The position numbers and the translations under genes were made by a program. This document shows, one piece after another, positions 6,496-29,753 of a stretch of 64,000 nucleotides of DNA. Origin of the DNA: Naegleria gruberi (lineage: Eukaryota); the NCBI GenBank assembly GCA_000004985.1, contig GG738913.1. One strand, 5' to 3'. Position 1 is the stretch's first letter. Each line of letters starts with the position of its first letter. The notes below the pieces were generated by a model. The model was given only the letters and a program-made list of their open reading frames with translations. It was not told the origin of the DNA and ran no database searches.

Positions 6496-7060
6496 TTTTT
6501 TTTAATAAATTTTGGTTTTATTCAACAGACTTTACAATTTCCCATTCCGAATAATAAAAAAATATTCGCATCGAATCCATGCTGATTTTCGGAATGGTTT
6601 CACATCATGAAAGCATCAAACTTTCACATCTCAACATCATCTGAATAGTAATAATAATAGTAATTTTTATTAGTGGATTATTATCATCAAATAGGAATTT
6701 TTCATGTATTTGTCCAAAATAGTATTTGTGGAAATTAATAGTGTATTATAATTTAATTTTCGTGAAAGTCATCATTTTCACTAAATCTCCCTGCTTGGAA
6801 TTTAAATGAGTTGGATTTACCGTCAAACAATAGTATTTTCATCAAGTTAGGATATTTGAAAGTAACATGTTTTTTACTATTATTTATTAGCAGATTTTCA
6901 TCATGTTGTCAATTTACCAAGTATATGATGTTGATTTCTAGTACACTCGTAGGAAACATCACAAGAAGTATGTGAACATTCCACTCTCTACCTAATAAAT
7001 TCTACGATTACAGATTTTACTCTTACAGTTGAGTGAAAAGTAGCCACAAATTCATTTCAA

Positions 7061-16077: not shown

Positions 16078-19000
16078 ATGACAGAATCACCACATGCATC
16101 ATTGAGTTCATTGGCTCGTCCAGTAACCTTCAATCTTGCTACTGCAACAGCAAACACTTCACACAGTGGCACTAATTTGAGGCCAGCCCTCAAGATTTAT
16201 TCTAATTATGAAACGACAGCATCTACTCATTCAGGAGATGATGAAGATGCAGTCTCTGCTCAACCAACATCTGTGGAGGAGGGTTCAACTGCTGATAAGA
16301 TCTCCTCTAATCAATTCACTGAGGAATACATTGTTCCATCACTTAAATCGATAAGAACACATCCATGGGATGATTTACCACATGTTTCGAGTTTATTAAT
16401 CTTTGGTATCATTCAACCAATACAATTTATTGCACTTTCTTTCATTCCCATTGATCAGTGGGGTTCCATCTCACGATATATCATAGATTATGGCATCAAG
16501 AGCATGTATACATTCGGGTTACACTTACTGCCCTACGAAGGATCAGCAGCCTTTCTCTTCATCTTTCTGCTTTTGGAAATGTTATGTGGAATAGCTCTTT
16601 ATTTGTCCAAAGAATCTATAGGCAAAGATGCCAAGCTTTGGAAATTAATGCCAAAGATATATACTTACATGACCTTTCTGTGCACTGTATTGTACCTCCC
16701 AATAACGAGTATTTATTCAACCTTCTGGTCATGTGATTATGTCCACGGAAAGAAGGAAGTTCAATCTGATATTACATCAACAATAACGACCAATTATTAT
16801 TTGAAAGTTTACCCAGATGTGGAGTGTTGGGATACTCCTAACCTTGTGTTTTCAATCTTTTCCATGATTGGACTGATTTTTCACATTGTGGCAATTCCAG
16901 TTTTGTTCACATTGACGGTGGCCAGTCCTTCCATTATTTTAGTTCCAACAAAGATAAGGACTGCATGGTGGCACAGAGTCATCAAGAAGGCATTCTTCAA
17001 TACACTGCGTCCTATTGTTCCTGTGGCTGTGTCCATAATGAGTGGATTTTATATTGTGTTTCAACAGATGGTACCCTCGTACACCGAGTTTTCATTCCTC
17101 TATCCAAGTGTAATGATAGCAATAGCCATAGCATCAGCTGGAATAATAATATACACGCTTCCTTATCATCGCCCTAAAGAAAACAGCTTTCAGTTCGCTG
17201 TAAACTTGGCAAAACTAGGGCCAAGTTCAGTAATGCTCATTTGTTCACTTCAAAATACAATTTCGGATGTCAATCACATCAGTGGAACGCTTTACCAATG
17301 GGAAGCTGGTTTAATTTATCTGGGAACTTCTCTAGCTTCTTGCCTTACTATTTTCCTGTTTGCCTTTTTTGGATGTCAAGCTTATCAGAAAATTTACATT
17401 GAAAAATTGGCAAAACAATTGAATGAGAAGATTTCGGAAAATTCTGGTGCCTTTTCGAATGATTTATTGGAAGATATTGGTGAAACTAATATGGGAAGAG
17501 TTGCACAATTCGCCTTAAATGTCGATGAGAAGGCAATTTCCAAAGTTGACATTGAACTGTTGGTAATTTCTAAAAAGATTATTACCGAAATGAAACGAAA
17601 CAAATTGACACCAACGGATACTTTCTTTGCAAGCTCACTTTCCTGCTTGGTTATTAAATTATTCAAGGAAAAGGATCCAAGATATGGAATCATGTATTCT
17701 TTACAATTACTTTCAGGTCAATTGAAAAGAAGAATCAATATTTGGGATCGTTTAGTTATTTCTTTACAAAAACATGAGAAAGATGTTTTGAAGAAACGTG
17801 AAGAAATCAAGCCAGGTTCAAGAAAAGCCGAAGAGATTGATAAGAAAATATCACAACTCTACAAGAAGCAAACTCAGCTTTCTAATTTGCATAGAAATTA
17901 TTGGAAACTTGTTTTGAATGAGAATAGCGATGATTCGAATGCCATTCTTCAAGTTTCTGATGAATTGTACATTTTGCAAAATGAAACTAGAAGCATGTTT
18001 GAAGAACTCTTCTCCCAACACTCAACCAGTGTCACAGTTTTAAGAAACTATTCACGTTTCGCTGAAAAATTCCTATTCCAACCTGAACTTGCAGAAGATT
18101 TACAAGCTGCTGTTTTGGAAGAGGAAGAAGAAAACAATAGAAAGAAGCAAGCATTCAAGGGTGGAAGAAGAGGAAGTAGAGCAGTACCTGGTTTCCAACA
18201 AGAAACCATTGATTTGAGTAAATTTGACGATTTGGACGAACTGCCAGAGGAAGCCGAATGTTTAGAAGAAGAGAATAGAAAACAAAAGGAAGGAAATAAG
18301 AATTTGATCAACAAGCATCCAGATTTCACATGGTTATTGATTGTTATTTTGATTATTCCATGCTATGTCATTTTGGGAATCACCGGAGGATTAATAGCAG
18401 AGATTATCCAAGGAACTTCCACAAAAGGAAGTTCTACCAAAGGTTTTGAATCCAAAGTTTGGATGTATTATGAATTATGTGATGCTGCAAATGTTCCTTT
18501 CTATGTCCTTGTAGACTATAGAGCTTTACAAAAGTTGAAACTCTTCTCTGGAAACACTGCATACATTACCAAATTAGAAAAAGATCACAAGGAGAGATTT
18601 TCCTCGTATAGTCAAAGAATGAAGAGTATGATGTTGGATTATTCATCAAGTACTGACAATTTAATCAGTGCTGTGGTCAAGGGCTATCAGCAAACCTACT
18701 ATGAAGTTTACATTCCAAAAGCAGTTTCTAATGCCTCATCATTTCAAGAAGGAACCAAGAAGAAAGTGACCTTATCCGAAATCTACTCCATGATGGCTGT
18801 TCAATTGGAAAATATCGTTCAACAAGATGATAGTATGAGTTTGAAAACAATTGAAAACTTTCCATTCATGTTCTTTTGGGAAAATCGAGAAATTATGCCA
18901 ACAATAATTTCCAATTTTTGTTCTACAATTATTGAAGATCACAGAAATTTGTTAATTGACCAATTGAGAGATTTCATTTTGGGTATGTCAATAGCCATGG

Positions 19001-21467
19001 CGAGCTTTATGATGGTAGCTTTTGGTATCTTTGGTGTCATTATTTACAAATTTAGAGATCGTCAACGTTTAATCAATTTATTCAAGAAATTGCCAAAGGA
19101 TGAAGTTGGACGAATCTATCAAGAATTGAAGGCTGGATGCTCCAACGATAAGCACTCACTTTCCAATGATAAGAAACAATTTATTCTCACTCGATTCTTA
19201 AGAAATCCAGTTTATGCCGTTCCATCTCTTCTCATGCTTTCATTTGCTATTGGCGGAATTGCCTTCTCTGTCTTTATTTACGATTCCACTAATAACATGA
19301 ATCTACAGTATAGTTCCATGTTGAAATTGAGAAATTCTGTTGATATCCAAGTTGATTACCATAAGGGTTTGTTCAATTTGGTCGAGTTGATTAGTGGAGA
19401 TAGTTCACTACCAACAAATAGTTCACTTGTTTATAATGAAGTGACGAATAGTATGAGAGGATTGGTAGATAACTTTTTAGTTTTCACAAGAGGAGATAGT
19501 CAGAAAGGTTACAACCCAATCAGAAGTTTCAGCACAGATATTGAAATACTCATGATTTCGAATACTTGTTCCAATAATTTTACTTCTATCAATAGAACTA
19601 TTGGATCAAATACTACTTCAACAACATTGCCAGCTTCATCTAAAACATGGAATTCTAACTTTACACTCTCTCAAAATTTGGATTTCTTCTCTTGTCTTTC
19701 GATTGAAGACCTAATGTCATATATTTTATCTGGAATGGAACAATTCAAGGAAGAATCTTTCAAGAATATTCGTACTTCAGGCTATTTTATTGAAACCTTC
19801 TTCAAGGATCATGTTTCCTTGAGTTTATCCTTCAGAGCAAAGGTCGACAAGGTTTTACTCGTTCTAGTATCTGTCATTGATAACATTGTGTCAATTACTC
19901 CAAGTTTGACAGCTTGTTTAATGATTGTTGTCTTGTGTATGCTCATTAATTACATTGTATTTACTTCATGGAAGGTCTACACATCTGAAATGACCCAACT
20001 TCGTCACATGTTTCATTTCATTTCTTGGGAAACAATCGAAAGCAACGAAATCTTCCTAAACTATATAATGAACTATGAATTAGTCAGAAAAAAGAAAGGT
20101 TCAAGAATTCATCCTGGAGATGAAGGTGCAGATAGTGATAGTACCACCATGCTTAAGAAAGTTTTGGATAGTTGTGTTGATGGAGCTGTTATTTTCAATC
20201 AGGAAGGAATTGTGGAAAATATTAATCAAGTTGCCTTGTCAATGTTTGGAATTAGATCTCAATCTGATGTTGTAGGAACTGAATTTTATGGACTTTTCCA
20301 ATCTAAAGATGTCATTGCCAAGACAATTAGTGACATTTCCAAGTCAGCTAATTCTCATGGTGAAATTCTTGAAGTTGAAGCTAAAAGATCTCAAAATATG
20401 CTCAATTCCAAGACATTCCCTGTAAGACTGAATTTATGTGTTGCATTTTCTGGTGGAAAGAGCAAAAAGGTCACATTTGCTGGTATTTTAAGTGATGTAA
20501 CATCAGAGAAGAAATCTCTTGAATTGCTAAATGTGGAAAAGAAAAAGTCAGAAGACCTGTTGAAGAGTATCTTCCCAGAAGCTGTTGCTGCTCGTTTAAA
20601 GAAAGGAGATACCTTCATTGCTGAGAAGTTTGATGATATTACTTGTTTCTTCTCAGATATGGTTGGTTTTACCAAAATGAGTAGCACTTTGCAACCAACT
20701 GAACTAGTAGAAATGTTGAACGATTTAGTGAATGGTTTTGATGAAGTGTGTACAAAGTATAATTTGGAAAAGATTAAGACTATTGGTGATGCTTATTTTG
20801 CAGCTGGGTAGGTTTTCTTCTTTTTGGAATATTTAAATTATTTATTTAACAATTAAATAGTGGATTGCATGGTCAACAGAGTGATCACCCTGAAAGAGTT
20901 TTAAGATTTTCAATTGATGTTTTTGGACTATTGCACAGATATAATATTACCAGAAATAGAAGTGTTGACAATTCTATTAATTTGCGAATTGGTATAAATA
21001 CTGGAAGTGTTGTCGGTGGTGTTATTGGTAAAAAGAAATTTGCCTACGTGAGTTTTCAATTTTTTTCAATGTTTATTTACAATAATGTTAATTATTTTAA
21101 TTTAATATTAAACAAATAGGATTTATGGGGAGATGCAGTCAATACAGCCTCAAGAATGGAATCAACTTCATTCCCAGGTCGTATTCAAGTTTCCAGAACA
21201 ACTTACGAAAGAATTCACGATCTAGTTCTTTACGATTTGGATCAAAGATTAAATCCTAATGGAAAGGGAATTATGGTGGAATTTGAGGAGAAACGAGTTG
21301 AAGTGAAAGGAAAGGGATTGATGCAAACCTATGTTCTTTTGGAAAAGTTCCATGAAAGAGCATTGTTTGAACATTTGGCAATGCATATTGATCATTCTCA
21401 AGACTCAGCATTGGTTCCATCTGTTGCACTTTCTAACCAATCATTATCAGATAAACATTCAGATTAG
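16078..21467 (+). CDS. polytopic membrane PAS-domain class III adenylate/guanylate cyclase; join(16078..20807,20861..21047,21120..21467)
   Basis: About 1754 aa. Three clusters of TM helices, a coiled-coil-like middle, a PAS-like segment (VLDSCVDGAVIFNQEGIVENINQVALSMFGIRS...) and a cyclase domain (FSDMVGFTKMS ... KIKTIGDAYFAAG | GLHGQQSDHPERVL ... RIGINTGSVVGGVIGKKKFAY | DLWGDAVNTASRMEST). The canonical DxWGDxVNxASRMES motif is recovered only after removing a 72-nt intron. Confidence 0.85.
20808..20860 (+). other. spliceosomal intron (53 nt, GTAGGT...TAG)
   Basis: Phase-2 junction in the cyclase domain. It removes the in-frame TAG. Confidence 0.7.
21048..21119 (+). other. spliceosomal intron (72 nt, GTGAGT...TAG)
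   Basis: Joins ...KKKFAY to DLWGDAVNTASRMES. Confidence 0.8.
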
Positions 21468-21479
21468 GGAATTTATTGA

Positions 21480-22469
21480 TTAGGCAAAATGTCTGGATAC
21501 TTGTTCGAGAATAACCTTGATATTTTGGATAGTGTCTTTTTGTAATTGAAGAACTTGTTCAATAAATTCGTTAGAGTGGTTAGAATTCATTTCTGGAAGT
21601 GGAATTTGATCTAGATCTAAAATGATAAGTTCTAATTGAGATTGTGCATGGTCCAATATTCTAGAATCTGTGCTCAAAATACATTGATCCTTGAGATAGG
21701 TCTTGATACACTTGATGATTCTAATGACTATTTGCAAGTAGTGTTTGAGAAGAATTCGTTTTGGTACTGAACTTCTTGGTTGTTTTGGAAAATCAAATTC
21801 CATTGTAGTATGCTGAAAATGGAATGAAATATCGGTCAATGGATGAGAAGCTTCATCTTGAGCTGCCTTACATGGATTAGTGTAAACATTTCCATTAAAG
21901 GAAAATAATGGCTTGATCCATTTGTCAGAACCTGTTGATGTACATTCTTTGGATTGAAGGATTTTGTCATTATCGGATTGGAAATTAATATATGTTTCCT
22001 TTGCCAATTTATCAATTCTATTCATCACCAAATTCAAAACTGTCTTTCCAGTTGGAAATTCCAATTCAGCTTTCATTTCGAATACTTGCAGCAAGTGCAA
22101 TACCACATCTCTGGCATATTTGAACATACATTCTTTGAATTGTGTACATAAACCATACTCTTCTGTTTGTTTCTTAAAGAAGAGTGATGAAACTTTTTGT
22201 AAAATCAATTCTTGACAATCAATCTTGTCATTATTCGTTGAAAGTCTACTAGGAATTGGTTGCTTACTAATCAGAATCTTCTTCAACTCCTCTGGATCAT
22301 CCACCACTTGATTATTATATACAATCTTTCCATTGTAATATGGATCTTCCTCATCTACAACAGCATGAAACGAAAGTCCACCCAATTCAAACTGAGCACA
22401 AACAACAGTCAATAAAACTGCCACCACCACGACCACTATCAATAGTGATACTTGTATTGTTTTTTTCAT
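21480..22469 (-). CDS. hypothetical secreted or signal-anchored protein
   Basis: ATG at 22469 (MKKTIQVSLLIVVVVVAVLLTVVCAQ, hydrophobic N-terminus). 329 aa with no recognisable domain. Confidence 0.45.
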   Translation of the reverse strand: MKKTIQVSLLIVVVVVAVLLTVVCAQFELGGLSFHAVVDEEDPYYNGKIVYNNQVVDDPEELKKILISKQPIPSRLSTNNDKIDCQELILQKVSSLFFKKQTEEYGLCTQFKECMFKYARDVVLHLLQVFEMKAELEFPTGKTVLNLVMNRIDKLAKETYINFQSDNDKILQSKECTSTGSDKWIKPLFSFNGNVYTNPCKAAQDEASHPLTDISFHFQHTTMEFDFPKQPRSSVPKRILLKHYLQIVIRIIKCIKTYLKDQCILSTDSRILDHAQSQLELIILDLDQIPLPEMNSNHSNEFIEQVLQLQKDTIQNIKVILEQVSRHFA

Positions 22470-22960
22470 TCTTGTATGTTGAAGGCTTTTAAATCCAAGC
22501 TCCAAATTAATAGCACTTCCTTCATCACGTTTCTTTCCAAATTAATATCAAAGAAATATATTGTGGATTATTTTAGGATGGTCAGATTCAGGTGTGTGGA
22601 ACACGTTTTTCTATTGTTCTACTTCTTCTTCATAATTCAACACGTAGGAAAGGAAGCCTTCCTTGCTGAACGATTTTGTTACTAATTAACTATCGAAAAT
22701 CCATTATAATTACTCTATAGGTGCTTCAGTTCTAATTCACGTTTTATACAGTCAGAGTAGGATGATAAGAAAAAGTTTATGATGATGAAATTCCTTCCAT
22801 GATGAGAATCAAGCTAATTTTTTCTAATTATCAAACTTCTGTTGGCGGTAACAAAACTAGCCGTTACAAGAATTAAATTCAAAAAAAAGCAAATTAAAAA
22901 AAAATCAAAACTTCTTTCTCAAATTTTTATTTATCTTCTTATGATGAAATCGACGACGAA

Positions 22961-24430
22961 TTAACTTCTATTATTTGTAGGAGACTGACTGAATGGCAAA
23001 GTACCCCCAGTATTCTCATCAATCCAATACATCTTGCCATCAATTACCGTGTATCCCTTCAGAGGAGCAGCCTTTGATGGCTCATCACCCGAAGATGATG
23101 ACGATTGAACAATTTGATTGCTCTGTGCGAGTGGAGTATTCGTCTCTACCAAGCTACCATCCTCATTGACCATGTAAATCCTTCCATCATTGTAATAGTA
23201 AGTCTTCTTTCGTGAGGTGCTGGCAGAGTTTGCTGCTGTTGCCGAATTGCCTATTGCCACAGTTTGAAGATTGGATGGGCAGGCAATGTGTTCTCCCAAT
23301 TGATTGAGCATGAAACATTGACCACTCACTGGATCAATGTAGTAGGATTCACCTGTTTCTGAGTTTTGGTATGTGGCCATTCCGTTCTGATCCTTGTAGT
23401 AGACTCTACCTTGTGAATCAACAAAAGGACCACCTGCCAAACCATTTGGATTAACAATTTGGGCACTGCCTGATGGTGTATTCACATAGATGGAAGATGT
23501 TTGTCCATTGTTATTGTTATTGGAATTACCAGAAGTGGTAGTAGAACCAGTACCAGTGGTACTTCCTGTGCTTCCTGTATTTCCTGTATTTCCTGAAGAA
23601 GTAGTTGGTTTGATTGTGGAGCTGGCTACAGGTTTTGGAGGATGTGGTCTTTTTGAAGGAACAGGCACAGGAATTGGAATTCCAACAATAGGAGAAGGTA
23701 CTGGTCTGACCACAACGACTATTGGTGGTTTAGTTCCAGTTGTAGGGGTTGAAGTTGTTGGAGTGGCTTGGGTTGTACCAGGACTTGGAATGTCTGCCAA
23801 ATTCAAGCCAGGTATTTCCTTAACTTTGGATGGAGGAAGAAAGAAGATTTGTCTTCCTGTTTTGCCATCAATGTAATAGTATCTACCAAGTGAATCTCTA
23901 AAGAAGATTCTATCATAACTATCTACAAAGTATTCCTTATTGTTATTGTCAATGTAGAAAGGGAGTCCAGTTTTTGCATCCATATAGAATGCATTTCCTT
24001 GCGAGTCGACAAAATAACGACGATTCTTATTATCTGTTAGAGCTTTGGATTGGAGTGAGGTTGGAAAATTTGGACTCGATGGATTGCTTGAATCAAAATA
24101 CTTGATATTACCATTCTGAGCAACGTAGAATGGTCTTCCAAGAGCATCTGCAAAGGTTTGATATTTGGTTCCTCCAACCTCAATATCAATGCCAAGTGGT
24201 TTGTCCTTGGATGGAGTGGATACACCATTCAGTGATGAGTATGAAGATTTGGATTCAACCACTACTGTTGTGGTGCTAGAACTGTAGGAAACGGTACTGC
24301 TACTACCTCCATTGTTGTTATTATTTACTATTGGTTTGGAAGGAACCTCAACTGGTTGCTGACCATGGGCAAGTTGACCAAACAAAACCACTTGAATGAG
24401 CAAAATTGTGGCCAAAACAATTGCTTTCAT
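22961..24430 (-). CDS. secreted protein with aromatic YYxD..G tandem repeats (reminiscent of bacterial YG / cell-wall-binding repeats) and a Thr/Pro-rich linker
   Basis: Signal peptide MKAIVLATILLIQVVLFGQLAHG. Repeats: YFVDSQGNAFYMDAKTGLPFYID, YFVDSYDRIFFRDSLGRYYYIDGKTGRQIFF, FVDSQGRVYYKDQNGMATYQ, YYYNDGRIYMVNEDG, YTVIDGKMYWIDENTG. Central TTSTPTTGTKPPIVVVVRPVPSPIVGIPIPVPVP linker. Confidence 0.6.
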   Translation of the reverse strand: MKAIVLATILLIQVVLFGQLAHGQQPVEVPSKPIVNNNNNGGSSSTVSYSSSTTTVVVESKSSYSSLNGVSTPSKDKPLGIDIEVGGTKYQTFADALGRPFYVAQNGNIKYFDSSNPSSPNFPTSLQSKALTDNKNRRYFVDSQGNAFYMDAKTGLPFYIDNNNKEYFVDSYDRIFFRDSLGRYYYIDGKTGRQIFFLPPSKVKEIPGLNLADIPSPGTTQATPTTSTPTTGTKPPIVVVVRPVPSPIVGIPIPVPVPSKRPHPPKPVASSTIKPTTSSGNTGNTGSTGSTTGTGSTTTSGNSNNNNNGQTSSIYVNTPSGSAQIVNPNGLAGGPFVDSQGRVYYKDQNGMATYQNSETGESYYIDPVSGQCFMLNQLGEHIACPSNLQTVAIGNSATAANSASTSRKKTYYYNDGRIYMVNEDGSLVETNTPLAQSNQIVQSSSSSGDEPSKAAPLKGYTVIDGKMYWIDENTGGTLPFSQSPTNNRS

Positions 24431-24639: not shown

Positions 24640-25572
24640 TTACAAATATTTGTCCTTGTGTTGGTTAAAGAATTCTTCAACACTTCTTGGCTTCTTTCCA
24701 GTTATTAATTGATAATCTCCATGAACGTTTGCTGTAGTTCCATTGAGTTTGAAAACTTGATACAATCTAACAAATGGGAAAATAAGGAATGGTGGAACGC
24801 CACTCTTTCTCAATAATTCACCATATTCAAATTCGTCCAATTCAACAAATTTGATTTCCTTTCCAAGTGACTTGGAAATGATTTGGGCAACTTGTTCGTA
24901 GGTCAAACTCTGTGGACCTGTCAAATTATAGGTTTGATTAGCGTGTTGCTCTGGAGGTTGAATCAAGATTTGAGCAACCATTTCTGAAATATCACGAGTA
25001 TCAACATGACTAATTCTATATGGTAATCCATGGTCATGCTTTGGTCTATAGAATACTCCACTATTCTTGATATCTGCCAAGTCACCTCTCACATAATTTT
25101 GAATGAACATGTTTGGTCTAATGACCACATACGAAATTGAGGTATTTTTCAAAGCTTTTCTGACACTGGTTTCAGAATCATGAAGATTTTTGAAAAAGTT
25201 GTTTTGCTCAAGATCTCCAGAGGCTCCCAAAGCTGAAATCTTGACAACTTGTTTCAAACCCTTTGAGGTCTTGACAGCTAGTTCCACAACTTGTCTTTCC
25301 AATTGAGCAACATTTGGAGTGGCAATTGTTACAAAGAAAATTCTCTCAACATCTTGGAATATAGTTGGAAGTGATGAAATGGTTTCAAATTCTCCCAGAA
25401 CATATTCAATATCTAAATTGGTGCATTCCTCGAATAACTTGTAGGCCTTTTCCACGTTTCTAACCAACAATTTGAGTTTCAACTTGGTTTCTGTTGGAGA
25501 AGAATTCAAAATACGAATCAATTCACTTCCAATATTACCAGTTGCTCCAGTAATGAAAATCTTGCTTGCCAT
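24640..25572 (-). CDS. NmrA-like / NAD(P)-binding Rossmann-fold reductase family protein
   Basis: N-terminal MASKIFITGATGNIGSELIRIL (GxxGxxG). Length 310 aa, typical for NmrA / isoflavone-reductase-like proteins. Confidence 0.7.
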   Translation of the reverse strand: MASKIFITGATGNIGSELIRILNSSPTETKLKLKLLVRNVEKAYKLFEECTNLDIEYVLGEFETISSLPTIFQDVERIFFVTIATPNVAQLERQVVELAVKTSKGLKQVVKISALGASGDLEQNNFFKNLHDSETSVRKALKNTSISYVVIRPNMFIQNYVRGDLADIKNSGVFYRPKHDHGLPYRISHVDTRDISEMVAQILIQPPEQHANQTYNLTGPQSLTYEQVAQIISKSLGKEIKFVELDEFEYGELLRKSGVPPFLIFPFVRLYQVFKLNGTTANVHGDYQLITGKKPRSVEEFFNQHKDKYL

Positions 25573-28640: not shown

Positions 28641-29753
28641 ATGACAGATGTTCAATCTTTGATTTTGGATATTGGATCGGGATCGATAAAGGCTGGATTA
28701 CATTTTCATGATGAACCTTCATTAATTATTTCATCAATGATTGGAAGAGTGAAATATAAACCTGTCATGATGACAAATGTCAAATTGGGATATGTTGGAA
28801 ATGAAGCAATGAGGAGGAGAGGGATATTGGATATTTCGTATCCGATCAGGAGAGGAATTGTTCAAGATTGGGATGATTTGGAATTATTATTTCAATATAT
28901 ATTCGAAAGTGAATTAAAGGTGGATCCACACGAGTTTTCACTTTTTCTTTCTGATTCTCTTCTCAATCCAGATTCTAACCGAGAGAAAATGGTAGAATTA
29001 CTATTCGAAACCTTTGGCATTCCAGGGCTTTATTTCGAATATCAACCCTTGCTATCTCTATATTCGTCTGGAAGAACTTGCGGAGCTGTTTTACATTCCG
29101 GAGAGGGACTTTCTCAAATAGTTTCAATTTCTAATGGATATGTTCTTCCCCAAACTATTCGTCGACTAAATTTGGGAGGTTTTGATCTGACGGAATATTC
29201 AAGAAAATTACTAAATACGAAAGGTCATTGTTTCAAAATGAAAGCAGATTTTGAAATTGTGAGAGAATTGAAAGAGAAATGTGCAAGAATTTCACTTTCT
29301 AACGATGATTTGCAGCATATAGATTCATCTGAATTATTTTACGAATTACCTGATGGAAATCGAATAGAAATTGGAAACGAAAGATTTGAAATAGGAGAAG
29401 CCTTATTCAATCCACAATGCCTAGGAATAGATTCCATTGGAATTGACCAATTACTAATTGACTCAATACAGAAATGTGAAATTGACACTCAAAGAGACAT
29501 GTTTGGAAACATTATTCTTGATGGAGGGAATTCACGAATTCCAAACTATTCCACTCGAATAGTGAATCAAGTTGAGAAGAGTGCCTCACCATCAATGAAA
29601 GTAAGGCATGTCAACATGTCAAATGAATACTCTGAATGGATTGGAGCTGCCTTCATGATTCTCCATTCTCAAATGAATTACATGTGGTATTGCAGAGAAC
29701 ATTATGATGAATTTGGAACAAATTTTATTCATAAACATGGAGAAACATTTTAA
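28641..29753 (+). CDS. actin-family protein (divergent actin / actin-related protein)
   Basis: 370 aa. DIGSGSIKAG (the actin DNGSG motif), YVGNEAMRRRGIL, YPIRRGIVQDWDDLE, LNPDSNREKMVELLFETF, ILDGGNSRIPN. Intronless. Confidence 0.8.
   Translation: MTDVQSLILDIGSGSIKAGLHFHDEPSLIISSMIGRVKYKPVMMTNVKLGYVGNEAMRRRGILDISYPIRRGIVQDWDDLELLFQYIFESELKVDPHEFSLFLSDSLLNPDSNREKMVELLFETFGIPGLYFEYQPLLSLYSSGRTCGAVLHSGEGLSQIVSISNGYVLPQTIRRLNLGGFDLTEYSRKLLNTKGHCFKMKADFEIVRELKEKCARISLSNDDLQHIDSSELFYELPDGNRIEIGNERFEIGEALFNPQCLGIDSIGIDQLLIDSIQKCEIDTQRDMFGNIILDGGNSRIPNYSTRIVNQVEKSASPSMKVRHVNMSNEYSEWIGAAFMILHSQMNYMWYCREHYDEFGTNFIHKHGETF

Follow-up and report, generated by a model that had tools for sequence, protein, structure and literature searches.

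An orphan Naegleria gene for an apparently secreted protein with two blocks of aromatic repeats

The gene, its leader and its repeat blocks

The window analyzed here is a stretch of 64,000 nucleotides of Naegleria gruberi contig GG738913.1. On its minus strand, where all features described below also lie, positions 22961-24430 hold a complete single-exon gene, a genuine open reading frame in the frame list, with an ATG start, 489 codons and a stop codon at 22961-22963; an in-frame TAA stands 9 nt upstream of the ATG. An exact-sequence look-up shows the product to be identical to N. gruberi NEG-M XP_002670681.1 (NAEGRDRAFT_53422, UniProt D2VZ63), which is already annotated as a "predicted protein" yet uncharacterized. 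A literature search found no paper that mentions the gene or protein identifiers of NAEGRDRAFT_53422 or its orthologues, and nothing in the Naegleria cyst-wall and encystation literature that bears on it. On present evidence the product is an orphan repeat protein of an ordinary kind.

The protein begins with a signal-peptide-like N-terminus (residues 1-23, MKAIVLATILLIQVVLFGQLAHG, 24362-24430), which reads MK-AIVLATILLIQVVLF-GQLAHG and then QQ, an h-region of about 15 residues being followed by a small-residue AHG site. Cleavage is predicted after AHG (between G23 and Q24), as A-H-G fits the -3/-1 rule. By hydropathy the only other strongly hydrophobic stretch is a VVVV run in the linker between the repeat blocks, and hydrophobic leaders also open both orthologues, in N. 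fowleri and N. lovaniensis. Because the N-terminus is the sole long hydrophobic segment, a hydrophobic C-terminal tail is absent, and the protein carries Ser/Thr/Pro-rich regions and two invariant cysteines, we infer that it is probably secreted, the signal peptide being judged by eye and from hydropathy. The original prediction of a secreted protein is thus borne out to the extent that the product looks secreted.

Two regions of low complexity flank the first repeat block. Residues 24-78 (24197-24361) are rich in Asn, Ser, Thr and Val (27% Ser) and poorly conserved, with 22-24% identity to the orthologues. The second is a Thr/Pro/Ser/Gly/Val-rich spacer, residues 201-312 (23495-23830), and its composition of 20% T, 17% P and 13% S agrees with the Thr/Pro-rich linker that had been predicted between the blocks. 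It includes the runs KPPIVVVV / PVPSPIVGIPIPVPVP and GNTGSTG and, at 23559-23595, a 9-bp tandem repeat of 4.1 copies. Identity to the orthologues is just 27-28%, with many gaps, and Pro-rich KPP[IV]VV motifs are found in their spacers too. Its composition suggests that the spacer is probably O-glycosylated; N-glycosylation sequons number just one in the whole protein.

The protein has 11 instances of the motif [FYW][FYW]x[DN], where 5000 shuffles gave a mean of 0.45 (sd 0.67, maximum 4). This motif belongs to a repeat unit of 9-10 aa with the consensus xxG[RN]x[FY][FY]xD, which amounts to one beta-strand and a turn. Two tandem-repeat blocks of 13-20 aa units had been proposed; there are indeed two aromatic blocks, but the unit is shorter and the C block is not a clean array. 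The N block (residues 79-200) opens with leading hairpins (residues 80-113, 24092-24193; AF2 strands at block positions 3-32) that hold two degenerate units, DALGRPFYVA and QNGNIKYFD, of which DALGRPFY and YFD are invariant in the orthologues. The core array follows at residues 134-198 (23837-24031), where motif spacing, a unit HMM and AF2 delimit seven consecutive nonamer or decamer units (NKNRRYFVD, SQGNAFYMD, AKTGLPFYID, NNNKEYFVD, SYDRIFFRD, SLGRYYYID and GKTGRQIFFL), each scoring 5.3-7.5 bits with the unit HMM. Aromatic pairs stand at residues 139, 148, 158, 167, 176 and 185, and the array is 12% Tyr and 12% Phe, with Tyr at 5.1% in the whole protein. The AF2 models of both blocks were built from a three-sequence alignment; for the N block, with one strand per unit (pLDDT 64-79 over the array, mean 63.8), a flat antiparallel beta-meander is predicted with moderate confidence. 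Structure comparison gave no significant neighbour for the predicted fold, and a PDB profile search with the N block found nothing.

The C block consists of three short hairpin clusters parted by Ser-rich loops. Cluster 1 (residues 331-385, LAGGPFVDSQGRVYYKDQNGMATYQNSETGESYYIDPVSGQCFMLNQLGEHIAC, 23276-23440) aligns with the N-block array in hhalign (probability 90%, E=1.6e-6), has unit HMM matches at residues 339-347 and 359-366, and reaches a sub-threshold 19.7 bits with Pfam WW. It also holds the only two cysteines of the protein, C372 and C384, 12 residues apart and both invariant. Cluster 2 (residues 408-430, KKTYYYNDGRIYMVNEDGSLVET, 23141-23209) is modelled by AF2 as three strands at low confidence. 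Cluster 3 (residues 457-480, LKGYTVIDGKMYWIDENTGGTLPF, 22991-23062) has AF2 strands, a unit HMM match at 465-471 and the sole Trp of the 489 residues, W469; KGY, GK.YW.D and P.F are invariant in the orthologues. With the unit HMM the whole C block reaches 7.3 bits, where the best of 200 shuffles gave 6.2. Its copies of the unit are weaker than those of the N block, and at the sequence level the two blocks are built from the same repeat unit. The AF2 model of the C block is poor (mean pLDDT 46.2), and a word-index search of a large protein database with its profile gave no homologue outside the Naegleria orthologue family.

Cluster 2 shows a single-motif likeness to the blades of PQQ-type designed 'Cake' propellers, every individual match being insignificant. 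We rejected a propeller reading of the C block: a 19-aa motif (GNDGTIYMVNEDG...) alone matches each Cake blade at about 4 bits per match, where several blades of about 40 aa would be expected, and the Cake matches amount to one short motif summed over identical blades. Foldseek matches to propellers stay at TM<=0.33 and E>0.01.

Distribution and distant repeat proteins

Orthologues were found in our database searches solely in N. fowleri (FDP41_011370) and N. lovaniensis, and the family is restricted to these three Naegleria species. The N block is 61% identical to the orthologues, ungapped, and the C block about 50%, as against 22-28% in the spacer and the N-terminal Ser-rich region; the turn residues (G, R, D) and the number of units are strictly kept. 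GC3 is host-like (0.31, with 0.22-0.38 in neighbouring genes), and profile and sequence searches found no bacterial full-domain relative. On these three grounds we see no sign of the horizontal acquisition that the original prediction had considered, and reject it.

Outside Naegleria, the best matches in an exhaustive HMM search are proteins with tandem "NGNAYYLDQ" nonamers (E=4e-8 to 1e-3), namely P0004, P0009, P0011 and P0014-P0017, mostly metagenomic, together with GAQ91591.1 of Klebsormidium nitens. They share the 9-aa period and the unit pattern xNG[NR]x[YF]Y[LI]D with NAEGRDRAFT_53422, although the likeness is limited to the repeats and the flanking domains are unrelated. Bacterial arrays also show almost perfect repeats and varying lengths, unlike the degenerate array of Naegleria, whose unit number is the same in each species. 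The P0004 locus has compact, prokaryote-like packing of genes on the same strand, and by our reading of the sequences the nonamers follow lipoprotein- or signal-type N-termini or precede beta-barrel-like C-termini, so that most would sit on secretion, lipoprotein or membrane anchors. P0004 and P0015, at 36.4 and 26.1 bits, pass the Pfam Choline_bind_1 cutoff of 20.5, with matches that span profile positions 6-18 or 6-17 of 19; others pass the WW or PBCV adaptor thresholds instead, and some weakly match the choline-binding part of PspC/PspA. Because these proteins pass the thresholds of Choline_bind_1, WW or PBCV adaptor, the hairpin motif is diagnostic of no family, and for the nonamer proteins homology and convergence on the motif appear inseparable at this level. 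The aromatic-aromatic-x-D-x-x-G pattern is common to the Pfam models of WW, OCRE, Choline_bind_1, PBCV adaptor and PQQ propellers, so that automatic labels like "OCRE domain-containing" or "WW" cannot be relied on.

Resemblance to WW and OCRE domains

Only one Pfam family, WW, comes close to its threshold. The full protein scores 24.4 bits and the N. fowleri and N. lovaniensis orthologues 26.6 and 27.4 bits against a cutoff of 26.9, the matches in all three being partial (profile positions 7/8-25 of 31). For the isolated array (residues 134-200) the best Pfam profile is OCRE, at 18.8 bits (E=0.0017) over profile positions 8-48 of 52, followed by WW at 17.1 bits, both sub-threshold; with the full protein OCRE scores 8.4 bits, and with the orthologues 11.9 and 14.7, against a cutoff of 24.7. 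UniRef nevertheless names the orthologues 'OCRE domain-containing protein'. Both WW and OCRE act in the cytosol or nucleus, and bind Pro-rich peptides rather than serving as lectins. That the nearest profiles bind such peptides inside cells speaks against reading the Naegleria protein as a lectin-type binder.

The WW signature comprises two Trp spaced by 20-22 residues, the second of them followed by a Pro. In Naegleria both Trp positions are Phe or Tyr, and the Pro is retained in the last unit only (FFLPP). The central hairpin signature of WW (PF00397), D-x-x-G-R-x-Y-Y-x-[ND]-x-x-T-G, is found in the array and is followed by an aromatic residue and then Pro (FRDSLGRYYYIDGKTGRQIFFLPP); in our own alignment this segment fits W..D..GR.YY.N..T..T.W..P with W replaced by F. 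WW domains are discrete three-stranded sheets, whereas AF2 gives one continuous seven-strand meander for the Naegleria array, which is apparently extracellular.

OCRE folds as a twisted antiparallel sheet of six strands, one face of which is shielded by an N-terminal extension. Like the Naegleria array, OCRE (PF17780; RBM5/RBM6/RBM10) has tandem short repeats in which clustered aromatics are followed by Asp/Asn and a Gly turn, and each repeat supplies one beta-strand to a small antiparallel meander (PMC5127646; predicted on the Naegleria side). OCRE is built of five imperfect octamer repeats with aromatic (Tyr) triplets (PMC5127646), whereas the Naegleria array has seven units of 9-10 aa, mostly with doublets and much Phe. 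The settings differ too, OCRE being found in nuclear RRM, Zn-finger and G-patch proteins and the Naegleria repeats in an apparently secreted protein with mucin-like spacers, and no structural match was obtained.

A proposed extracellular binding protein and its alternatives

Our preferred reading, to which we give a probability of about 0.45, is that NAEGRDRAFT_53422 is a Naegleria-specific secreted glycoprotein in which two aromatic beta-hairpin modules on a spacer allow bivalent binding or cross-linking of a polymeric ligand outside the cell. After cleavage of the signal peptide, the two modules would be held apart by the extended, Thr/Pro-rich and probably O-glycosylated spacer, which is about 110 residues long. 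In the modules, each unit of 9-10 aa would supply one beta-strand and a tight Gly/Asn/Asp turn, so that the N module would form a flat antiparallel meander of about seven strands showing rows of Tyr and Phe, with conserved Asp and Arg at the strand ends, and the C module would carry three shorter copies of the same hairpin with one probable disulphide. The two aromatic sheets would most likely be the binding surfaces, for which the ligand platform of exposed Tyr rows in OCRE (PMC5127646) is a known analogue. The preferred ligand would be a glycan or cell-wall-type polymer, such as the surface of bacterial prey or the organism's own cyst wall or glycocalyx, and the lectin-like function proposed originally would be a reasonable guess; a proline-rich (PPII) peptide, as in WW and OCRE domains, would come second.

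Possible, though unlikely, is that the modules are genuine Trp-less relatives of WW and OCRE that bind PPII peptides, perhaps in the KPPIVVVV, PVPVP and KRPHPPKP spacers of the same protein or its neighbours, and so assemble an extracellular network. The near-threshold WW score, with the N. lovaniensis orthologue above the cutoff, the OCRE match of the isolated array, the UniRef name and the fit of FRDSLGRYYYIDGKTGRQIFFLPP to the WW pattern are consistent with this kinship. The Tyr rows exposed on the six-stranded antiparallel sheet of OCRE form a ligand platform and bind PPII motifs with flanking basic residues (PMC5127646), and in all three orthologues the spacer is rich in Pro and contains basic residues. 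Against it, every score of NAEGRDRAFT_53422 itself lies below the curated cutoff, neither signature Trp is present, the period is 9-10 rather than 8, the spacer is poorly conserved (27%), and the protein looks secreted while WW and OCRE are intracellular. The stronger proposal, in which the meanders of an extracellular polyproline binder would engage the basic Pro-rich spacers (KPPIVVVV, KRPHPPKP) of neighbouring molecules to build a matrix such as a cyst wall or glycocalyx, we regard as a long shot. If true, such polyproline self-assembly would put to use outside the cell a class of modules that, to our knowledge, has so far been known only inside cells.

Naegleria cysts have walls, and other protists cross-link the Tyr-rich proteins of theirs. 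A structural component of a wall (the cyst wall, say) or matrix, with Tyr-rich blocks that undergo oxidative (dityrosine) cross-linking instead of acting as a specific binder, would suit the aromatic content of the core array, the secreted-looking architecture and the low-complexity spacers. We hold this to be improbable: Phe freely replaces Tyr (FFRD, IFF), which points to a packing or stacking role that does not need the hydroxyl, the strictly kept turn residues and unit number point to a folded domain, and Tyr content over the whole protein is low. It is slightly less probable again that the protein is not secreted at all, the hydrophobic stretch being a membrane anchor or the product of a mis-called start and the protein an intracellular adaptor. 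The WW/OCRE-like similarity would suit such a role, but the in-frame stop upstream of the ATG, the h-region with its AHG site, the hydrophobic leaders of both orthologues, the invariant Cys pair and the mucin-like Ser/Thr/Pro-rich regions all argue for secretion.

Least likely of all is that the modules are divergent members of the bacterial choline-, cell-wall- and glucan-binding superfamily (YG, CROP), possibly transferred horizontally and binding cell-wall polymers as a solenoid. The YG-type resemblance noted in the original prediction stands at the level of the motif, by way of the nonamer proteins, and fails as kinship. The PF01473 class (LytA, CbpF/J, PspC, YG repeats, clostridial CROPs) does share extracellular aromatic beta-hairpin repeats with the Naegleria modules, their aromatic-aromatic-x-D-x-x-G core fitting the second half of the Choline_bind_1 profile, and has a multivalent binding-module architecture like that predicted for the Naegleria protein. 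The link is indirect, through N-block matches above the PF01473 cutoff (P0004 and P0015) and others that weakly resemble PspC/PspA, together with weak PDB matches to CbpJ, CbpF and TcdB. However, neither PF01473 (Choline_bind_1, gathering score 20.5 bits) nor MORN gives a Pfam match at E<=10 with the full protein, the N array alone or C cluster 1, and the Pfam glucan-binding repeats do not match; with no significant family found among them, the proposed homology falls. In the PDB searches the matches to solved choline-binding proteins and TcdB are insignificant (E 0.05 to 7; CbpJ and TcdB, E=0.05-1.8). The class has a unit of about 20 aa with GW...WYY and alternating strand types, and forms a superhelical hairpin solenoid, whereas the Naegleria period is uniformly 9-10 aa, there is one Trp and no GW/WYY signature, and the N block is modelled as a flat meander. 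The nonamer intermediates are also linked just as well with WW, PBCV adaptor and PQQ propellers, and the Naegleria-only orthologues and host-like GC3 weigh against transfer.

If the modules are binding surfaces, as the preferred reading of a bivalent extracellular binder holds, Naegleria would have in this protein an extracellular adhesin or cross-linker of its own. The pathogen N. fowleri has a conserved counterpart, FDP41_011370, which would then be a candidate for a role in prey capture, surface adhesion or cyst-wall assembly. FDP41_011370 is annotated with a 122-nt GT..AG intron, which we dropped as a sign of eukaryotic ancestry: read in another frame, it gives a linker like that of N. lovaniensis, and the gene model probably uses the "intron" to bridge a frameshift.

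A conserved Naegleria gene built from one aromatic nonamer

The open reading frame at window 22961-24430 on the minus strand (489 codons, starting with ATG, with an in-frame TAA 9 nt upstream) is a conserved gene restricted to Naegleria, and its product carries two modules of a single aromatic nonamer hairpin separated by a low-complexity Thr/Pro spacer. By exact-sequence look-up the product is XP_002670681.1 (EFC37937.1, NAEGRDRAFT_53422, UniProt D2VZ63) of Naegleria gruberi NEG-M, and six nearby open reading frames are likewise exact N. gruberi proteins; the window is therefore nuclear DNA of N. gruberi, and the gene has a database entry already. There it is labeled "predicted protein" and nothing more, and a literature search found no mention of NAEGRDRAFT_53422 or its orthologues.

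The protein contains 11 copies of the motif [FYW][FYW]x[DN], against a mean of 0.45 ± 0.67 and a maximum of 4 in 5000 shuffles, and the spacer (residues 201-312) is 20% Thr, 17% Pro and 13% Ser. The ATG reading frame, this motif enrichment and this composition confirm the original prediction of aromatic repeats with a Thr/Pro-rich linker, but its repeat unit of 13-20 aa is too long: aromatic pairs in the N block (residues 79-200) fall at residues 139, 148, 158, 167, 176 and 185, giving a unit of 9-10 aa. Seven such units follow one another (NKNRRYFVD, SQGNAFYMD, AKTGLPFYID, NNNKEYFVD, SYDRIFFRD, SLGRYYYID and GKTGRQIFFL; consensus xxG[RN]x[FY][FY]xD), with two degenerate units upstream of this core array at residues 95-113. 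Searching the C block (residues 313-489) with an HMM of the seven core units reveals four weaker copies, at 339-347, 359-366, 414-419 and 465-471; the block scores 7.3 bits, whereas none of 200 shuffles exceeded 6.2. In a profile-profile comparison N-block residues ~122-163 align with C-block residues ~323-368 (probability 90%, E=1.6e-6), and together these results indicate that both blocks are made of one hairpin type. The protein has a single Trp (W469) and only two Cys, C372 and C384, both invariant among orthologues.

A word-index search returned only three proteins: a 99% identical N. gruberi variant (P0001), N. fowleri FDP41_011370 (P0002) and N. lovaniensis C9374_003835 (P0003). Identity to the orthologues is 61% without gaps in the N block, ~50% in the C block, 27-28% with many gaps in the spacer and 22-24% in the leader and Ser-rich region, and the number and register of units are constant throughout. 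This constancy across the genus indicates a folded domain under purifying selection, accompanied by a spacer conserved in composition. A 9-bp tandem repeat (GTACTTCCT x 4.1, window 23559-23595) encodes a GNTGSTG run in the spacer; the ENA variant P0001, a second N. gruberi-like sequence, lacks three residues (GNT) of this run, and spacer length therefore appears polymorphic. The N. fowleri gene model places a 122-nt GT..AG intron in the Pro-rich spacer (positions 6694-6815 of the locus on VFQX01000009.1), and in another frame this segment encodes PPQTTTTTTTPPKPQKPPIVVVVPSTPIPP..., closely resembling the N. lovaniensis spacer. The supposed intron probably reflects a gene-model fix for a frameshift or an indel in the assembly, and we did not use it as evidence; in that case the N. 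fowleri protein would be ~40 aa longer.

Relation to bacterial and other aromatic repeats

The repeats had been likened to bacterial cell-wall-binding repeats, possibly acquired horizontally. In Pfam, the full protein has no match to Choline_bind_1, glucan-binding, MORN or RHS families even at E<=10. Kinship with the bacterial wall-binding repeats is not demonstrable. The full protein scores 24.4 bits for WW (cutoff 26.9), in partial matches over profile positions 8-25 of 31, with OCRE and the PBCV adaptor at noise level, and the orthologues fall on either side of the WW cutoff (26.6 and 27.4 bits). The isolated core array scores 18.8 bits for OCRE (E=0.0017, cutoff 24.7, profile positions 8-48 of 52) and 17.1 bits for WW, and the first C-block cluster alone scores 19.7 bits for WW; neither segment matches Choline_bind_1. 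Among PDB sequences, choline-binding proteins J and F and toxin B are matched only at E=0.05-7, and the N-block profile has no match. We see no sign of horizontal acquisition. At 0.31, the GC3 of the gene is no outlier among nearby genes, which span 0.22-0.38.

When the N-block HMM was run exhaustively against 1.84 billion cluster representatives, 17 proteins scored at E<=1e-3, and only the two Naegleria representatives fell below 1e-10; a search with the C-block profile gave no match outside the family. Matches outside Naegleria (E=4e-8 to 9e-4) consist of near-perfect tandem nonamers, such as NGNAYYLDQ, which in our reading of the sequences are joined to lipoprotein-like leaders, transmembrane segments or beta-barrel-like C-termini. 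The gene for P0004 is packed closely among same-strand genes in prokaryote-like fashion, P0012 lies on a gene-sparse 1-Mb contig, and P0008 comes from the alga Klebsormidium. Their Pfam assignments are mutually inconsistent, with Choline_bind_1 above cutoff in P0004 (36.4 bits) and P0015 (26.1 bits), WW in P0008 (39.4 bits) and PBCV_basic_adap in P0007 (43.3 bits) and P0010 (60.4 bits). Some match the choline-binding part of PspC/PspA weakly, and the P0004 repeat also matches PQQ propellers in the PDB. The inconsistency implies that several repeat families, unrelated or with only an ancient relationship, share the hairpin motif aromatic-aromatic-x-D-x-x-G, and the motif cannot assign family membership. 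The likeness to bacterial YG repeats is therefore real as a hairpin motif and goes no further, and NAEGRDRAFT_53422, which databases already list as a predicted protein, is an orphan: a lineage-specific version of the widespread aromatic beta-hairpin repeat theme.

Seven of these distant proteins (P0004, P0009, P0011 and P0014-P0017; locus L002, 5001-5915) are mostly metagenomic and bacterial-looking, with near-perfect NGNAYYLDQ or NGRPYYIDE nonamers. In our scans no dedicated Pfam or NCBIfam model matched this nonamer, which gave only partial matches to Choline_bind_1, WW or PspC models. P0007 and P0010 are ~680-700 aa long with signal-like N-termini, and their scores for the 'PBCV-specific basic adaptor domain' are well above cutoff; this domain, chlorovirus-specific by name, is apparently not confined to chloroviruses.

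Predicted fold, secretion and possible role

The AlphaFold2 model of the N block, made from a three-sequence alignment, has a mean pLDDT of 63.8 (64-79 over the array) and places exactly one beta-strand per unit in an antiparallel meander. Foldseek found no PDB match at E<0.01 (TM-scores <=0.33) and nothing significant in BFVD; the structural matches are generic meanders (propeller blades, the CPAP G-box, Rhs shells), with no choline-binding, CROP, WW or OCRE structure among the matches listed. The C-block model is poor (pLDDT 46) and shows disordered Ser-rich loops between three hairpin clusters. We infer that the modules fold as a flat beta-meander. A "Cake" propeller was rejected for the C block, the scores against designed Cakes being sums over identical blades, each matched at ~4 bits by a single 19-aa motif.

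The N-terminus, MK-AIVLATILLIQVVLF-GQLAHG followed by QQ, reads by eye as a predicted cleavable signal peptide, its hydrophobic leader ending in a small-residue A-x-G site; in the hydropathy profile the only other long hydrophobic stretch is a VVVV run in the spacer. Taken together with the two invariant Cys, the mucin-like stretches and the lack of any further hydrophobic segment, this leader suggests that the protein is secreted. What stands of the original prediction is thus a probably secreted aromatic-repeat protein, without demonstrable bacterial kinship or any sign of horizontal transfer. Such a protein could use its Tyr/Phe rows to bind or cross-link a ligand bivalently outside the cell. 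Among solved structures the nearest mechanistic analogue is OCRE, in which exposed Tyr rows on a six-stranded sheet bind PPII peptides (PMC5127646); judged by cellular location, the nearest analogues are the wall-polymer-binding aromatic hairpin repeats of bacteria. We favour a glycan or wall polymer as the putative ligand, given that the setting appears extracellular and that the most similar nonamer arrays occur in a surface-protein context; a PPII peptide, perhaps in the protein's own spacer, is possibly bound instead and is our second choice.

Neighbouring genes

Upstream on the same strand lies NAEGRDRAFT_74374 (window 24640-25572), an NmrA-like NAD(P)-binding protein (Pfam NmrA, 81.5 bits) whose stop is only ~210 bp from the start of the repeat gene. 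Immediately downstream, also on the minus strand, a 341-aa reading frame (window 21480-22505) is listed from TTG, its true start probably being an internal Met; its product carries a hydrophobic segment at the N-terminus (IQVSLLIVVVVVAVLLTVVCA), matches nothing in Pfam and may be a further orphan membrane or secreted protein. On the plus strand are the single-exon, 1577-aa predicted protein NAEGRDRAFT_74371 (window 16078-20811) and the 370-aa NAEGRDRAFT_74378 (window 28641-29753), whose UniRef name is actin.
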